Below are positions 22,983 to 32,804 of a stretch of DNA of 55,517 nt, piece after piece. Under the pieces are notes generated by a model, which was given only the letters and a program-made list of their open reading frames with translations, searched no databases and was not told where the DNA came from. The stretch comes from Macrostomum lignano. Taxonomy: Eukaryota. The stretch lies in the NCBI GenBank assembly GCA_002269645.1, contig NIVC01003497.1, positions 1 through 55,517 on the forward strand. The letters run 5' to 3'. The translations under genes were made by a program, and so were the position numbers. Each line of letters opens with the position of its first letter. Positions within the stretch are counted from its first letter, which is position 1.

Positions 22983-25691
22983 AATATGAATACTATAAAT
23001 AATTAATAAGTTGGTGAATCTGACCAATCTTATGTTCTATGCTCAACCCTATAACAAATTTGCTTGTGACAAATTTATCCTAGGCCATAAAAAAGGCCTA
23101 AACAATTTTTATAAACACTAAATATTTAATAATAATTAGCCCGCCTAGTTGATACTTGATAGTTGATAAATACCAAAGCCAAGGGCAAGGCTTCATTCAT
23201 GGCACTTTCAATTTAAAAAAATGTAATTAAACCGACAAAAAGTTGTATATATATCCAATAGCCAATAGGCTCTTTCTATATGTCAACGCCTACTAGTGAT
23301 TTCTACTACTAGGCCTATGCTGCCAGTGTGCAGTCATTTCGTCTACCTATTTTAGGCCTAGATGGACAATGTAGACCTACCTATGAGTCTATGACCTAGT
23401 TCTTAATTGAGATTATTATCTACTCTTAGTATCTCTAAGCTAGGTCTAGCCTAGCTAACTTAACTACATTTATCGTTTTTAACCATTTTGAAACAAGCCC
23501 AGTGGAGTAGCGTAGCCAAGGTCATGACATGTGATGTGGCAATGGCATACGACCACATAACATAGCATGTTCAGTTTCATAATCAATGTCAATGAACACA
23601 AATTACAAGGACAACTTTAAAAGCAAAACGAGGCAATTAAAAGGACAAATTGGTACAACAGGGGTGCTGTGGTTCTATTTCGTGACCCACATATTAGAAA
23701 ATAGTACGACAATGACTTGCAGACACAACCAGCTTCATTTTGTTCTAAAAAGACGGTGGTTTGAAACAAACGCAAAATAAAACAAAATAGACTATTTCTA
23801 TACCTAGATGTCACGAAAATTTATAAGCATTAAAGAAAAAAATAGGAACCTTATTAGACCACATATTTTGCAACAGATAGGCTAAGCTAGAGTATTGTTG
23901 TATAAATATGTATAAAGTAAAGTGGTGCTGCGATCGTGGCAAGCTAGCAAGTGTAGCAAGCGCTCAAAAGACCAGCGTGCGCAGCATCCAGCTGCCGCTC
24001 CTGCAAGGTGGTCAGGGTTCACGTTTCAGCGTTGTAGATAATTTCAAATCTAACACTTAGCGCGCAACTACACACTTTGTAACTTAATTTAAAGGTCTTT
24101 AAAGCAAAATAATACATGTACATGTACATAGCGAACCCCGGGGGGAACTATTTTAGCAGGATTACGATATTTAACATGATTATTCTGACATGCTTTATTG
24201 ATTAGCTAGGGGTGTCAATTTTGGGTGGACAGCTATTGCAGCAATCTTATTGATCGGTTGATTTGCTTTGAATAGCGTAGTTATACTTTTTTCGTGATCT
24301 AATCGTCAGTGGGTTTAAAAGCATTGGTAATCTTAATTCTTTATGGAATATTCGACTTCTACTACTGTAAAATACAGTAAGACCGGGTAAACGTAAAACT
24401 TGGTCTCTGTCACTTTTGGCAGCTTATACGCGTTTGTCTCTGGGGCCTTTTGTTGTATTCTCGATCACTTTCGATAATATAGGTCTAGCGCGCGGTCTAG
24501 GGTTCTATAAACAGCTCAGCTTTATATCCTTTATCAGGCCGCCAGAGAAAACCGTATAAACTGACGGGATCTCCTAGTATCTAGGCTGAATTTGAATCTC
24601 ACGAGTATTTCGCTCTGCGTAACTTTAAGGCAAATAATTGGGTTGAAGACTTGAATTTGAGCCAACTGGATAGTCCAGAGATCAATACAAAAGGAGCGAG
24701 TTGAGATCTGAAAACTGCGCAGGAAAAAACGAAGCGCCGCTCCAGTTTAAGATGGGCGTCTATTTTATACCGATTGGCAATTTTGACCCCCCCCCCGCCG
24801 CCGGTGGGGTGTCTTCGCGTGGTTAGCAAAGGCGGGGGATTAATTTTAAGCAATAAAATTCTGGGACTCAGTCCCCTAGTTGTACACGAATTTAGTTAGT
24901 TCTAGTAGGTTGCTAAGTGCGAGGGTTAGAGATTATTCAGGGTTTTGCAAATCTATGTGTTGAGTTGGATAAAATTTGGGATACGCTCGTAGAACGATTA
25001 TAGAAAAAGAGCTTAATTTTCCGTCTCTTAACTCTGTCCATGGATGATTAAACAGTCTCTCTCTCAGCTCTCGGTTGTCAAGCTGTTTGGGGTTGATCTC
25101 GCCTTCTTGGGCCGCTTCAGGTTGGGTAGGAATCTGTAGGTGGGCCTCACGTTTTCTCCCTCAGGGTGCGCCAGATTCTGCTGCGTGCCGCGTCGTTCTT
25201 TAAGTCAGGTCGCTGCTCAGTTTGCTTTTCCCAGCCGGTTTGAGTGCCATTGTTCCTGCGGCAGGGTGACGCTACTGACTGGAATGGAAAGGGGCTTTAT
25301 TAGATTCGGCTATTCAAATTGACTTGACAATTGATTAATTATCTTAGAACTGCTTCTGTTTGCCCTTCTAATAGCTATCTAGGGGTTCCATTGTGTTTTT
25401 TCTGCCTCGGCCTTCACTGCGGCTGGGCCTTTCATAAATTTCTACCTATCTTCTAACTTAGGGTTAAAACTTCAGATGTCTAACTCTTATATGATTCCCC
25501 TTTTTTTCGAAATCCTTGTGATAACAAGGATTTGGGTCCTCTATGCTAGAACTAAATCGCGTTGTCGGTGCGTATTTCATCAAATATAAGACGTTAGAAA
25601 TCTGCAAAAGGTAGTAAACGTTGTATTAGGGGTAGAAGAGGATGTGCTAGCAGAGGTAGATAAGTGATTGTGTCAGAGGATGGATTATACT

Positions 25692-26078
25692 TCAAGCAAA
25701 AGTTTCAAGCGTATAGTTTGTTTTATATAGCTCGTATGTTGCGCCGAGGCCGTTTAGTAATATTCGTCCTTGACCGGGCGGTTGCCTATCTTCCATAGAT
25801 ATAGGCGGTAGCCCCTGTGGTGAGGGCCATGGCCTAATGGTGGCGGCCGCCTCATATGGGCCCCCGTCCCATGGAGTCTTTCTGGGGGCCAGGATCACCC
25901 CCCAGTCGTTATAGTCGGCGGCCGTTTGTGTAGCCACGGAGTGGCCGCCATCGATATCGCACTCGGCGACCTGTGTTTGTGCGTCTTTCTTGACGCACTT
26001 CCGAACGTGGAGGTCTACGTCCACAAAAGCCTGGTCAGGTCGCCGGGTGTAAGCCTTTTCTGGTGTGTAGGCGGCCAT
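25692..26078 (-). CDS. Orphan 128-aa ORF in the internal region of the LTR element
   Basis: ATG in good context (AAGATGG) 18 nt downstream of a strong acceptor TTTCTTATTTCTTTCCAG; non-repetitive composition; no recognisable domain. Confidence 0.4.
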   Translation of the reverse strand: MAAYTPEKAYTRRPDQAFVDVDLHVRKCVKKDAQTQVAECDIDGGHSVATQTAADYNDWGVILAPRKTPWDGGPYEAAATIRPWPSPQGLPPISMEDRQPPGQGRILLNGLGATYELYKTNYTLETFA

Positions 26079-26399
26079 CTTTGTGCTGAGTGTGTGCTGG
26101 AAAGAAATAAGAAATTGATTATCACGTCTGGGGGTTTGGCGTGTGTTCTCATCTGCCTATCCTCCTTAGTGGGCCTACTTTACATTGGTTCTATCCTCTG
26201 CGTACATGGTGTGGCGAGTGCGGCGGGACGTGAGGGGTGGGGTTTTTAGAAGCTGGGTTCGGAGCCGTGCCGCGTCTGACGAAGGGGTCCTTTCCTTCCT
26301 AATCTTTCGATTCCTTTCAAAACGCGGCGCATGGAAGCGTGCCCCCACAATTTGACTATTCGGCCGATTTCTGCGCCGTAGATACTATCTAATCTCATC

Positions 26400-26660
26400 A
26401 TGTCTGAGTTTACTGTGCGGAAGATAGTGCGTCTTGTTAGTGAGCTGGAGCAGCGATTACGGGCCATGGAAGATCGCTCTATTGGTTTAGAACGCTGGCT
26501 ACTCAATCTGGAGGCTCGGTCGGCGGTTCAGGATGGCGGGCTGCGCGCTCTTCGCGGTTGGCTGAGCGGGGTGGGGGGCGGTGGCCTCCTACTGTTTGTC
26601 GCGCTTCTACTGCTCCTAATCTGTCTTCTACGCCGGCGGTATCAGGGCCTGCCTGCTTAG
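26400..26660 (+). CDS. Orphan 86-aa coiled-coil plus transmembrane protein, antisense within the LTR element
   Basis: Heptad pattern (IVRLVSELEQRLRAMEDRSIGLERWLLNLE), hydrophobic segment GGGGLLLFVALLLLLICLL, then polybasic RRRY; ATTAAA at ~26781. Confidence 0.5.
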   Translation: MSEFTVRKIVRLVSELEQRLRAMEDRSIGLERWLLNLEARSAVQDGGLRALRGWLSGVGGGGLLLFVALLLLLICLLRRRYQGLPA

Positions 26661-26792
26661 TAAGCCATGTAATTCCGTGGATTTCACGTCAACCTTTAAT
26701 GACAATGTGTTCTCTTCAGTTCTGTTTTTATTTGTTATAAATACGGTTATAAATTCGGTACATCCAAGCATCAGTAAAGCATTAAATATCGC

Positions 26793-26847
26793 AGGATTCC
26801 TGGCTCTCACCCAGGCGGCCCGGGTTCGACTTCCGGTCAGGGAACCA
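26793..26847 (+). tRNA. 5'-truncated tRNA-Glu(CTC) copy with encoded CCA; acts as the primer-binding site (minus strand) of the adjacent LTR, not a functional tRNA gene
   Basis: AGGATT-CCTGG-CT(CTC)AC-CCAGG-CGGC-CCGGG-TTCGACT-TCCGG-TCAGGGA-A-CCA: intact anticodon and T arms, 3' acceptor strand and CCA, but no 5' acceptor strand or A box. Confidence 0.85.
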
Positions 26848-26849
26848 CC

Positions 26850-27196
26850 TGTAACAGGTCGTTTATCGGTAGTCTCTGAAGGCCTCTCACGCCAACTACC
26901 TTACACGCCTGCTACCCCTCTGCCGGCGTGTAACCTGCTACTACCCTGCCTGCTACCCCTCTGCTTAAACTTTACTCAACTCGGCAGTGGAGAGCCTCGG
27001 CTCTTTCAATTGCAATTGTATTTATAACGCTCGGCATTGTGCTCGGGGGCAGTGTTGGGGTGGTGGCGTGATATTTTTCCGCCCACCCATCTTATTTGCT
27101 TTTTTGCATAGATAGCTAGTTAGATGAATTAACACAGAGAGGGCACTGCGTGGTCTGCGTGGCTGTTTTAGTGCTGGCAAATGCGTGGGTCTAACA
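26850..27196 (-). mobile_element. 347-bp LTR (5' LTR of a minus-strand element)
   Basis: Minus strand begins TGTTAG and ends TGTTACA, followed by GG and TGGTTCCCTGACCGG (PBS); TATAAATA at 27026-27019 and AGTAAA at 26976-26971 in U3-R order; no second LTR found in the window. Confidence 0.72.
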
Positions 27197-27672
27197 TTAA
27201 ATATCTATGGTAAGTTTGTAATAGCATATCAGCGTTTTGAACGCTGATAACAGCTCATCGATAAAGAACTTAAATTAACAATATTGAAAAGTCGCGAAAA
27301 TGGTCACTGGTCAGATAGTCATATTCCATTTCGTCATACCGGATGACGAAGTGACCAGGAGCAAAGTAGCTTTGAAAAATAATATGACGAAGTGACCAAA
27401 TATTTAGTTATGCTGGATACTTCGTCATCAATCAATCAGTGAAATATATGGGGGATGCTTTTAACGTAGATAACAATTATGCACAAAAAATAAACCAGAA
27501 ATTGGTATCCGGCCTTTCACATCTACCAATCAGAAAAAAATAGTCGAATAGACACCGAATCTTTTAGATATTAAAAATTTTATAAAACTTTCAAGAACAT
27601 ATTCTTTTGCCATGAATTAGAAAATTCTCCACGCAACACCCTTATACAGTACGCATAACGTATTTCTTTACA

Positions 27673-27970: not shown

Positions 27971-30900
27971 TCAGGGAGGTCTGCCGGTCCTGTCTGTAGC
28001 GTTGTCTTCGGTGGGGAAGACAGAGGCTCGTTTGGTAGCCTGGAGGAACTGGATGAGCCGTGGGATGTTCTCGGGCCGGCAAACGTCGTCCAGGGACGGG
28101 TTGGGCCCGAGGTGGCTGGTCTCGGTTGAAGGCCGGGCAGTAGCAGACGAAGTGCTTGGCATCTTCGTTCTCGAGGCTGCAAAGGGGCAGAGTTCACTCG
28201 GGCGAACACTTCGGAGGAAGCAGTGCCTGGCAAAGCAACCGTGACCTGTGAAGGTCATAGTGAGAGCGCGGATATCTTTTCGATTTTGATTCAAAAGGAT
28301 TCTATGCAGCTTGAGGGATGGATTGGGCACTGCAGCACGGGACTGGCGGCAGTTGAAAATGCCACCCCATATGCGTAAGTGCAGGATGTCCGCCCAGTCA
28401 TTCATCTCACGATTAATGACCGTGGCGGGGATGGGGGCCAGGGGCACGGGGCCAAGGAGCGAGCCAGAACTACCCGCCTTTGCGAGCTCGTTAACTTTGA
28501 ACCCAGCGTGTCCTGGGATCCACGTAAGCCGGGCGGTGTTCCTCCAAGCCAGCTTGTTGAGCTGCCCGATACAGTCACGGACTGTTCGGGAGTTCGTAGT
28601 GGTGTGACACAGGGCCTGCAAAGCGGCTTGGCTGTCAGAGTCGAAGAAGATTCTTCTGTCCTTGAAGTCCCTGCAGTGGAGCTCAGCTGCACAGGAGCTG
28701 ATGGCAAGGACTTCGTTCTGGAAGACGCTAGAGAGTCTGTCAGTGTGTTGGGCGTGAGTAGAGATCACGCGGCCGTTGATAAGGATACAGACTCCAAAGC
28801 CGGATAAACCGTCTTTGGAGGATCCGTCAGTGAAGCAGTGAACCTCCTGAGGGGCCCAGCTGTCGTTGGCGTTCTCCCTGGAGGGGATAGTGACCTTGAA
28901 GCGTTGGTAGAGATTGAGGGAGCGCGGCTCAGCGTCCGAAAGAACAGCCGTACTCCCGCTCTCCTCCAGAACTTTAAGGCACAGGTCAGAGTGCGGCCGG
29001 AGCTTGCGCTTCGCCATCGCTCTTTGTGGCTTGAAGCTAACGCCACCCTCGATTAGCCGGCGGGTGGTTTTAGCAGCCTCGCGACGGACAAAGATGTCCA
29101 GAAGGGGGGGGGGGCAGAGAAAGGCGTTGAGGCCGTCAAAGGGAGCAGAGAGCGGGGCATTCAGAATCATGCGGCACGCGCGTCCCTGCACCTTTTTAAG
29201 GGCTTCGTAGCAAGTTTTAATCTGCAAAGCGCAGGTCCAGATTAGACCGGCGTAAGTAACGGCCGGTCGGACCATTGCGGTGTAGATCCACCAGAGCCGT
29301 TTCGGGGTGAGGCCCCAGGTGGTGCCAACGGCTCTGCGCAGCTGCGCAAGAATCTCGAGGGCTTTTTTGGTTTTGGCCTGAACGTGGGTGGACCAGCTCA
29401 GCCGGTGGTCCAGCGTAACGCCGAGACACTTGGTTTGCTTGCAGGATGGGATTTCCACCCCGTAAAGCTTTAGTGGGCGAATACGCCAGTTGACCCTGCT
29501 GGTGAACATGATCGCGACAGTTTTGGTCTCGGAGAGTCTGAGGCCGCACCTGTCCGCCCATTGTTCAGCAGAGCGAATAAAGTTTTGCAGAAGATCCCTA
29601 AGGGTTTGGGTGACGGTCTGGATGCTACGGCTGTAACATCATCGGCGTAACCGACCTTAAGGATGGGGTCAAGATGGCTGTCCTGAAGGAGCTCATCGAT
29701 GACCATGTTCCAGAGAACTGGAGAAAGGACACCGCCCTGGTGGCCCAGCAGGTGTGCGGTGGCAGTGCGGTGGCTGATCATATACATGATCCACCGGGTG
29801 AGGTGCGAGTGGGTTCCTCTAGCACGTAGAGCTCTGTCGAAAGCCTCAAAGAGGACATTATCGAAGGCTCCAACAATGTCGAGGAAGACAGCGAGAGCGT
29901 AGCCATTACCAAGAACGGCTTTCTCCAGCATGTCGACCAAGACATGAAGCGCACTCTCCGTGGACCGGCCTGCCCGAAAGGCGTGCTGGTTCTCACTGAG
30001 CGGCTTGTTCTTCAGTTCCACAGAGAGGAGGCGCCAGAGCACCAGTCTCTCTAACAGCTTCACCAGTGAGGAGGTGAGGCTGATTGGTCTGAAGGATTTA
30101 ATGGACCGGTAGTCCGGTCGGCCGGGCTTGGGGATAAAAACCACCTTGGCCTCGGTCCAGGGTTTCGGAACAAAGCCGAGAGCAATGCAAGCTTTCAGAA
30201 GCCGGCAAAGGTTCCGCAGGAAACCGGTGCATTTCACCGCCTCTCGCAGGAAAGCTGGCACAATGCCGTCCGGTCCTGGGGATTTGAAGGGTTTGAAGGA
30301 GGAGACTGCTTTAGCAACGCGGTCCTCCGTAATGATTGAGTCAGCCAGTACGTGTCCACCCACTGAATGATCAGGGGGGGGGGTCGGGCCTGGCTGGCTC
30401 GCACGAGAAAAACGCTGTTAGCATCGCCTCCAGCGTTTCTCCTGGGTTCTCAGTGAGCGAGCCGTTGGCTTTCTTTACTGAGGAGAGTTTGGACATTTTG
30501 TCCAGAGTGAGGGCTTTAACGATTCTGGAGGTGGGGCGGGAGCCCTCAAGTTCCTCACAGTATTCGCGCCACTTATTGGTTTTGGCGTTCCTAACCTGCC
30601 TCTTGAACTCGTGGATTGAGTTCAGGTAGGTGGTTTGGTCGGCCGGATTTTTAGTTTTTTGGGCCTACGGTGAAGTCTTTTGGCTCTGCGACGGAGGTCG
30701 CAAGCTGCGGGTTCCACCATGGGGCCGACTGTTTGCCTTTATATGCCTTTAGTGGGCATGAGGCTTCGAAGGCAGCAGTGAGCGAGTCCGTAAGTACGGC
30801 CGCAAATTCATCTGCTTCCTCGCAGGTTTTGATGGAGACTGGAGTGCTAGTGCAACGATAGGTCTCCTCCACGTCAAGCCTGAAGGCGGTCCAATCGGTA

Positions 30901-30975
30901 TTCCTAGCATTCCGTTTCCAGTAAAGCTGGCCTGCGTTTTGGGCGCTGGCCAGCGTGAAGGAGATGAACTTGTGA
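27971..30975 (-). pseudogene. LINE ORF2 (APE remnant, reverse transcriptase, RNase H), frameshifted
   Basis: RT motifs KSPGPDGI, FRPISLTS, QHAFRAGRST, FLDIVGAFD, QGGVLSPVLW, YADD; RNase H FTDGS, VFQNEVLAI, DSQAAL, WIPGH; frameshifts near 30700, 30370 and 29600. Confidence 0.92.
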
Positions 30976-32319
30976 TCAGAGAGGGACGCTAGATCTGATC
31001 TCTAGAGAGGATCTGATCTCTGTGATCAGAGAGTAATCCCACCAGTTGGAAGGCTGAGCCATGCCGTCGTCCAGTTCCCTCAGCTGGCTTTCAGTGTTTT
31101 TGCGAGCGGCACTAGTCCGCTCGAGGCGAAGTCTCAGAGACTGAGCTTCGTCAAGTGCGCGCTGGATTAGCCCGGACCGCCGGTTACTGCGGGCGGGTCT
31201 ACGCCCGCGCGAGGCGGACTCAGCAGCGCGAGTCTTGTTAGGCTTGTTAGGCTCGGGATCGGGTTGCTGCTGCCGTTTGGCCGGCGGAGCCTGAGCCCCA
31301 GCTCCGGGAGCGGCGCGCTTCCCGTCGTTCTTGGTCTCCACCTTGCCCTCCTCACAGCGGAGGATGATCAGTTGATGGAGACCAAGGTGGAGGTTTGAGC
31401 CATGCGTTAGCCGCTTGGCCCATCCCTCCGTCAGGCCGAGGATGACGGTGGCCCCGGTCGTGCCCTTGCGGACCGTGTTGTGGTACACAAGACCACTGAC
31501 GTCGAGATCCGGGTGCCGCTTGAGCAGGAGCTGCCGCAGCTGCTCCCCGGACTTGATTGCACTGTCGGCCGGGACCCAAATCATATGGCGGATGGTCTTC
31601 GGCCGCTCGCTCTCCAGGGCGAAGGTCAGCTGGCCCAGGTCGCTGTGCCAGTCGAACTTGGGCAGTTGATCTCGCAGGAGCTGGGTGCTCTCCTCGGATT
31701 TGCACCACAGTAGGCTGCACCCGTTCGCCTTGGTGGACTTGATGATGTCCACGAAGACGCCCTCCAGGGTTAGGTTTAGCAAGCCCTCGTCGATGGTACG
31801 CCACGCGACGTCGAGCTGCTCGGGCGTCAGGTCGAAATCCCCGCCGAGGATCATCATGGCGGGTTGCAGCGGCTGCTTGACCTTGGAGGCGTAGGATTCG
31901 GAGGTCTTGAGCGGGGCCGCTTTGTCCTTGGAAAGCGGTAGGCCGGCAGGATTGCCCCCCTGAGAGTCCGAGGACACGGCGGTTCCTGACGGCCCAGCAG
32001 TGCCACCGGACTCTCCAGAGGGCCTCCCCGCTGCGGTGGCTTCCGAAGGCCTCACCGCGGCTTGCCCGCCCTCCGCGGACGCAGCAGCAGCCCGCTTCTC
32101 CTGCCGCTTACGGTTGCGGCGGATATTTCGCTGCCGTCGGGACTCGGCCGTGCGCGGTCGGCTAGCCTGGCGGCCAGGGTGCTCGACGGCAGCGTCAGCT
32201 GGCCCTGTTGGACCAGGTTGGGCGTTGGTGCTACCAGTGGTAGCTACCGGAGCGGCTGATCCCGGTGAGCCAGAGGCGACCGGGTCAGTTTCTTTTGAGA
32301 TGGTGGCGTTAGTGGCCAT
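30976..32319 (-). CDS. LINE ORF1 protein (447 aa)
   Basis: Open frame from ATG 32319 immediately upstream of ORF2; low-complexity N-terminus and structured central region. Confidence 0.75.
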   Translation of the reverse strand: MATNATISKETDPVASGSPGSAAPVATTGSTNAQPGPTGPADAAVEHPGRQASRPRTAESRRQRNIRRNRKRQEKRAAAASAEGGQAAVRPSEATAAGRPSGESGGTAGPSGTAVSSDSQGGNPAGLPLSKDKAAPLKTSESYASKVKQPLQPAMMILGGDFDLTPEQLDVAWRTIDEGLLNLTLEGVFVDIIKSTKANGCSLLWCKSEESTQLLRDQLPKFDWHSDLGQLTFALESERPKTIRHMIWVPADSAIKSGEQLRQLLLKRHPDLDVSGLVYHNTVRKGTTGATVILGLTEGWAKRLTHGSNLHLGLHQLIILRCEEGKVETKNDGKRAAPGAGAQAPPAKRQQQPDPEPNKPNKTRAAESASRGRRPARSNRRSGLIQRALDEAQSLRLRLERTSAARKNTESQLRELDDGMAQPSNWWDYSLITEIRSSLEIRSSVPL

Positions 32320-32804
32320 AGCTGAAAGCGGGGGAGGGCTACTCGTTACGCGAGTTGAGTAACCCGACTGGCCGACACCTCAAGCCAACCGGTTTGAAAA
32401 AAGGACCGCTAGCGACCGGACTACTCCCCGGCCTTCCAGCCCATCGGCACGGTCAAACACCTTAGGCATTAGAGGGTACGTTAAGCAGTACCACGGCCTG
32501 CAGGCTGGCAAGCCAGACCCGCATGCCCAAATTCGGCCGAAGCCACTGGATGGGTCCCCAGCGCCGGAGCCCAGTCTGTCCAGCAGCCCTAGGGTCTGCC
32601 TTGAACACACGCGGGGACGGGTACCCCTCGTTCGACTTGCGCGACAGCGTGGGGGTCTGCGGCTGCCAGAGGCAAATAGAGGGTGCAGACCTTCCACCAG
32701 CCTTGACCTGCTGAAGATAGGGGCAGGCGTAAAGCATCGCAGACCTTAGCCCATGGGCCTAGTCTGTCTCATACTTCACTGGCATGCTGAATACGCCTTC
32801 GCGT

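Follow-up and report, generated by a model that had tools for sequence, protein, structure and literature searches.

Two unrelated LTR retrotransposon families joined by a copy of their primer tRNA-Glu in the Macrostomum lignano genome: a likely product of faulty reverse transcription

Plus-strand strong-stop synthesis normally ends at m1A58 of the primer tRNA; on an unmodified tRNA, synthesis continues to the 5' end, and minor stops at later tRNA modifications have been reported (PMC13191261). Overrun of the primer followed by deferred second-strand transfer is already published for HIV, where 7-54 nt of tRNA lie at the deletion junction of 44 proviruses (PMC12657518). Copies of tRNA in retroelement DNA are known from two other settings: nearly the whole mature tRNA was copied in an MMLV circle (Colicelli and Goff 1986, as cited in PMC12220202), and the HITME inserts covered by the same source are tRNA-Asp and tRNA-Glu. 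Here, we describe a locus in Macrostomum lignano, found in a stretch of 55,517 nt (contig NIVC01003497.1, hereafter the window) and compared with the whole 764-Mb assembly by genome-wide searches. The MMLV circle and HITME involve non-primer or spurious tRNAs (PMC12220202), whereas in the window the element's own primer was copied, in its normal place. The locus also resembles the defective HIV-1 proviruses of Hardy et al. 2025 (PMC12657518), which have a 5' LTR, a primer site and more primer-tRNA copy, and in which the tRNA copy marks a large internal deletion with the 3' part and the 3' LTR kept. As in those products, the window has an LTR and a primer site that continues as a mature-tRNA copy, and at the end of the copy the sequence jumps to an internal site farther downstream, followed by a 3' LTR. 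The downstream part belongs to another family, so that the two LTRs do not come from one element; at a relic described below (C208), both LTRs do come from the same element. Unlike those HIV-1 proviruses, the window relic lies in an inherited animal genome, is gypsy-type and tRNA-Glu-primed, and combines two unrelated families and hence differing LTRs, and some of the relics reported here have no second LTR (PMC12657518). In the literature that we searched, with most subscription journals outside our reach, we found no germ-line or cross-family case of tRNA overrun.

The junction reads on the minus strand. The first LTR ends in TGTTACA and is followed by a 2-nt spacer (GG, 26848..26849), the same as at normal junctions of its family, and by a 55-nt reverse copy of mature tRNA-Glu(CTC) (26793..26847). 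The copy runs from the CCA end to A21, spanning the complement of the CCA, acceptor, T arm, variable loop, anticodon arm and 3' D strand, and stops directly ahead of two D-loop uridines. The complement of about 55 nt noticed in the first-pass annotation is real, being identical at 54 of 55 positions to a genomic tRNA-Glu(CTC) gene plus CCA; the single change is at tRNA C61. The same annotation had named a mature tRNA as the template, and the copy's CCA bears this out because the genomic tRNA genes do not encode one: a tRNA-Glu(CTC) pattern had 24 matches, and 16 of the 20 loci fetched are ordinary genes without an encoded CCA. Since the window primer site also lacks the 2-nt bulge of its family, it was written from the tRNA in plus-strand synthesis and not from element RNA. 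We hold it very probable that the tRNA part is a one-off overrun, copied from the tRNA by plus-strand synthesis that went past A58. ARAGORN and Rfam called no tRNA in the window, as expected for a truncated copy. A tRNA gene or tRNA-derived SINE was considered and rejected: there is no such call, the 5' 20 nt are missing and the copy is at a single locus. DNA folding of the tRNA junction was uninformative (z = -2.1). The GT of a putative splice donor, read from the sequence, lies within the copy (26809..26810, minus strand).

The LTR belongs to a family that we call A. The segment 26850-27196 is indeed a repeated LTR (128 candidates, 40 of them scored; 30 loci were fetched among the 41 matches listed). 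Its proposed length of 347 bp, with a border at 27196, was too short: 53 further bases beyond that point are common to all copies, which places the 5' border at 27249. The LTR thus measures 400 bp (26850..27249, minus strand, TATCAG...TGTTACA) and starts with TA, not TG, the family ends being TA...CA. The window copy is 86.6% identical to the LTR of an intact two-LTR copy in contig C1145, and its U5 region carries a rearrangement peculiar to it. The C1145 copy has two identical 413-bp LTRs, a 633-bp interior, a primer site, a polypurine tract and the target duplication AATAG; the interior is non-coding, with a longest stop-free frame of 132 aa. Family A is a real, small, non-coding LTR family that makes 5-bp target duplications and whose primer, tRNA-Glu, binds a short site with a bulge. 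We take its layout to be that of a TRIM-like, non-autonomous element. There is no same-family partner for the window LTR in the 55,517 nt.

Is the long site a property of the element? Three normal family A junctions were found (C1145, C870 and C1376/C4593, the last one decayed), and the primer site there consists of 8 nt, a 2-nt bulge and 6 nt, followed by element sequence. The 27 other family A loci fetched all lack a long tRNA site. An exact genome-wide pattern combining the LTR end and the primer site matches only the window locus and one short-site element, that of C1145. An element or subfamily that uses 55 nt of pairing with tRNA-Glu and transmits this long site to its copies could be represented by the rearranged U5 of the window LTR, and 40 of the 128 LTR candidates were scored; yet no family A internal sequence follows the window tRNA copy, and the long CCA-bearing tRNA-Glu copies, detected by pattern at ten places, reduce to four loci (window, C566, C1626 and C259) with four different upstream sequences. 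We give such a heritable site hardly any credence. Across independent family A insertions the long site was found at the window locus alone; it is a one-off and not inherited. The first-pass annotation had presented it as a feature of the element, about three times the usual length, and had itself named short sites in other copies, which is what we found, as the observation that would count against this. Its idea that the reverse transcriptase copied the primer far past position 58 stands; its corollary, that the overrun became fixed as the element's long primer-binding site, does not, given the short sites of the other copies.

The DNA beyond the tRNA is not family A either. This had escaped the annotation: from 26792 on the window contains the inside of a different gypsy element, family Z, whose homologues run upstream into other sequence. 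The tRNA copy and the Z template overlap by 2 nt (CT, 26793..26794, minus strand), as seen in the closest Z copy (L068), which is 78% identical to the window. The 3' internal region of Z (25492..26792, minus strand) is 68-87% identical to other Z copies and ends in a polypurine tract (25507-25492). It is followed by the 3' LTR of Z (24425..25491, minus strand; 1067 bp, TATAAG...CGCGTATA). The internal region includes an ORF of 128 codons (25692..26078, minus strand) without a Pfam hit; upstream of it there is an acceptor-like pyrimidine-AG (AG at 26098-26097), present in the window and in all four Z copies read. An antisense ORF in the same region (26382-26657, plus strand) is also kept in four Z copies read; it has a coiled-coil-like stretch, a glycine run, a hydrophobic segment and a basic tail, and only a weak Pfam transmembrane hit.

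Altogether, the window holds the 3' ~2.4 kb of family Z, and ~11.5 kb are missing. In Z copies with two LTRs (C1878 and C1405) the duplications measure 5 bp and the tRNA-Glu site 13 nt. The one in C1878 is ~13.8 kb long (C1878:37975-51761, L108-L099) and Pfam places in order gag (zinc knuckle), class III fusogen, protease, RT, RNase H and integrase, the fusogen being in the same frame as the protease. With this order from gag to integrase between its LTRs, which have TA at both ends, family Z is a Ty3/gypsy GAG-ENV-POL element. It resembles the GAG-ENV-POL errantiviruses with HSV-gB-type fusogens of flatworms, nematodes and bryozoans, which have gag, a class III fusogen and then protease-RT-RNase H-integrase (PMC13524379). 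The window holds only the 3' end of Z, and the likeness described here is one of layout. Families A and Z share no sequence, either between their LTRs or between their interiors; their right ends (CA and TA) and polypurine tracts also differ. What they have in common is the tRNA-Glu primer, the TA start and the length of the target duplication.

The pieces appear to form one unit of 2.8 kb, bracketed by AGCTG. The candidate left duplication lies at 27251..27255 and the candidate right one at 24420..24424, directly after the Z right end (both minus strand). A match within a 1-nt slip is expected for 0.3% of random pairs. The left copy is off by one base, an extra T (27250) preceding the LTR, unlike the exact duplication found at 16 of 25 single-LTR family A loci (one other has one mismatch and eight have none). 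The matches in C99 and C3129 have the same flanks, junctions, AGCTG and extra T, and are the same locus as the window. No empty allele was found in the assembly or in the contigs of four DNA runs, which can show presence but not absence, so that the duplication counts as a candidate. We consider a single insertion, composed of a family A LTR, a copy of mature tRNA-Glu and the 3' end of Z, as the likely product of one faulty round of reverse transcription.

Could the parts have come together by independent events? A LINE-made tRNA retro-copy or a SINE may have landed beside a solo LTR, and CCA-ending tRNA-like SINEs do exist in this genome, with a LINE 700 bp away from the locus. However, the copy has no poly(A) tail, begins exactly 2 nt past the LTR end, has the orientation of a primer site and comes from the family's own primer tRNA, and two further families (B and C, see below) show the same arrangement with their own spacers. 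Mis-assembly of the contig could also produce such a join, but three contigs share the same junctions and short-read contigs support the unique flanks. Over the tRNA-Z junction the short-read contigs extend by 30 and 24 letters, and the rule for bridging was 31. Independent events or mis-assembly, taken together, seem very unlikely. An 11-bp direct repeat around the interval first noted was considered as a LINE-type target duplication and discarded, since all family members have one of its copies inside the LTR and the second copy is part of family Z.

We infer the following course of events. Plus-strand strong-stop synthesis of family A would have run beyond A58, on a primer that probably lacked m1A58, and would have stalled at the D loop. 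Its overrun 3' end being unfit for pairing with the primer site, the strand may have annealed by 2-5 bases inside a Z minus strand present in the same particle, and been extended to the right end of Z. Integrase could then have used the two true LTR ends of the hybrid, leaving one 5-bp duplication around unrelated LTRs. The resulting hybrid provirus is predicted to be nonfunctional. Being without coding capacity, family A depends on a helper. No coding partner was identified by the leader motif that it shares with family C, all nine matches of which are small A or C elements. That A and Z were packaged together is only deduced, because no internal or LTR sequence is common to them and their right ends and polypurine tracts differ. 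Still, we favor the one-step chimera, in which transfer onto the Z template was followed by integration as a provirus with two unrelated LTRs, and regard it as reasonably probable.

Its main rival is an origin in two steps, in which overrun family A strong-stop DNA was inserted one-ended into a resident chromosomal Z copy after which microhomology-based repair by the host sealed the tRNA end and removed the 5' 11.5 kb of Z. One-ended relics that lack a second LTR do occur in the genome (C1626 and C566, with C1774 and C259 as probable cases), the extra T breaks the exactness of the duplication, and the lack of sequence common to A and Z fits such an accident. On the other hand, the deletion would have had to stop within one base of the left border of Z, or else AGCTG is there by chance, at the frequency given above, and the window has no remnant of a Z 5' LTR. 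We therefore consider the two-step origin unlikely, though much less so than independent events.

The window is not the only relic of this type. Besides it, the genome contains three confirmed and two probable cases of an LTR followed by a long tRNA copy, involving Glu and Ser. At C566 (103534-102984, L040; also in C1294 and C2009) a family B LTR is followed by a 66-nt tRNA-Glu copy ending at G10 and then by a 12-nt inverted copy of the left end of the LTR, with flanks CCAA/CCAG. This fold-back may have rebuilt the second integrase end, after which the lone strong-stop DNA may have integrated normally. Of 27 other B loci, 6 show the normal primer site of 14 nt, and none has a long one. At C1626 (L047:1430-1560) a family C LTR is followed by a whole 75-nt tRNA-Glu(CTC), which ARAGORN calls as a gene, and by an unexplained inverted piece of tRNA-Glu(TTC); at seven places the normal family C site is 14 nt, and none is long. 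On the other strand, C1626 has the order tRNA-CCA-LTR. This layout has reportedly been proposed for the origin of SINEs from a primer plus strong-stop DNA, and the literature that we searched yielded nothing on a strong-stop origin of SINEs. C259, on four contigs, is a probable relic with a decayed, intronic tRNA-Glu copy of ~58 nt.

A generic pattern of an LTR end plus a tRNA copy, with 43 matches as against 18 in the control, gave the remaining cases. Thirty loci were read, and the other 13 comprise 12 repeat strings already read and C2101; most matches are due to chance or are SINE-like or satellite sequences, and the window itself is absent because of its C61 change. C208 (L155:6108-8649, found twice; also in C2219) has a 272-bp LTR, a tRNA copy of ~50 nt and a jump into its own pol. 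Its 3' LTR is 99% identical to the 5' LTR and its TATA duplication is intact. It is a same-family parallel to the anatomy of the window, i.e., a read-through deletion provirus. C1774 probably has a 306-bp LTR and a tRNA copy of ~49 nt, with no partner LTR within the 20 kb read. In both, the tRNA is presumably Ser, judging from its structure. As these two relics appear to use tRNA-Ser, the overrun is not confined to Glu. Glu accounts for three of the five relic loci of the unbiased search, a proportion that, taken without family sizes, does not show enrichment. Copying of tRNA-Glu stopped at A21, at G10 and at the 5' end, and that of the probable tRNA-Ser near A37; A58 was read correctly in all four Glu relics. 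Another locus (L138, C396:570402) is a tandem repeat whose unit includes a 3' tRNA end similar to that of tRNA-Glu or tRNA-Asp.

The first-pass annotation had offered extended primer pairing as an alternative explanation. This fails to account for 55 nt, but pairing may be extended to a lesser degree, as there are short additional matches to the D arm and to positions 57-61 in the normal leaders of families A and C and in Z. In normal family A leaders, 8-9 nt that match the tRNA D arm lie ~10 nt past the primer site, the family C leader has a 7-nt match in the same place, and family Z has a 10-nt match in U5; family B has none. The chance of that 7-mer in a random stretch of 200 nt is ~1.3%. 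The A and C leaders are related, and for this reason the D-arm boxes count as two independent cases. In addition, GAGTC, which could pair with tRNA 61-57, lies just past the primer site in families A, C and Z (L005, L232, L108) and may pair through A58 in the manner of an over-extension sequence. On sequence grounds, the two motifs in three tRNA-Glu-primed families suggest that the primer site is split and that an over-extension sequence is present. The second D-arm matches of the A and C leaders, and that of Z in U5, recall the bipartite primer sites of Ty1/Ty3 (PMC5371799). The matches described here are 7-10 nt long, are separate from the 55-nt relic and represent putative pairing. Neither the putative D-arm contacts nor the putative GAGTC ones account for the 55-nt copy.

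These results have several implications. The apparent threefold lengthening of the primer site does not amount to a new way of priming. With the relic, an error documented in the HIV reservoir is extended to inherited invertebrate retrotransposons. It also raises the question of how elements primed by a tRNA that possibly lacks m1A58 end their plus-strand synthesis. In human data, GluCTC is one of two tRNAs with little m1A58 (PMC5066629), and tRNA-Glu is not among the m1A58-bearing primers that a review lists (PMC13191261). The relics provide a way of pairing non-autonomous elements with their helpers from sequence alone, which is usually guesswork, and a simple pattern search can find them in any assembly. 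If the reading is true, the chimera physically documents that reverse transcription of a non-autonomous element and of an unrelated helper with an envelope gene took place in one particle. We give an even chance to the broadest version: that the window is an inherited chimeric provirus made by cross-family second-strand transfer between two such elements in one particle; that it is one of a class of relics, spread over the genome, which log where reverse transcriptase stopped on primer tRNAs in germ cells (D20, G9, A37 and the 5' end); and that tRNA-Glu-primed elements cannot rely on a stop at m1A58 and cope by means of additional pairing boxes that they have evolved.

Two further features lie in the vicinity of LTR A. 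A short, highly repeated element adjoins it (27302-27438), and 27971-32379 on the minus strand is occupied by a LINE-like element that is broken and has RT and RNase H.
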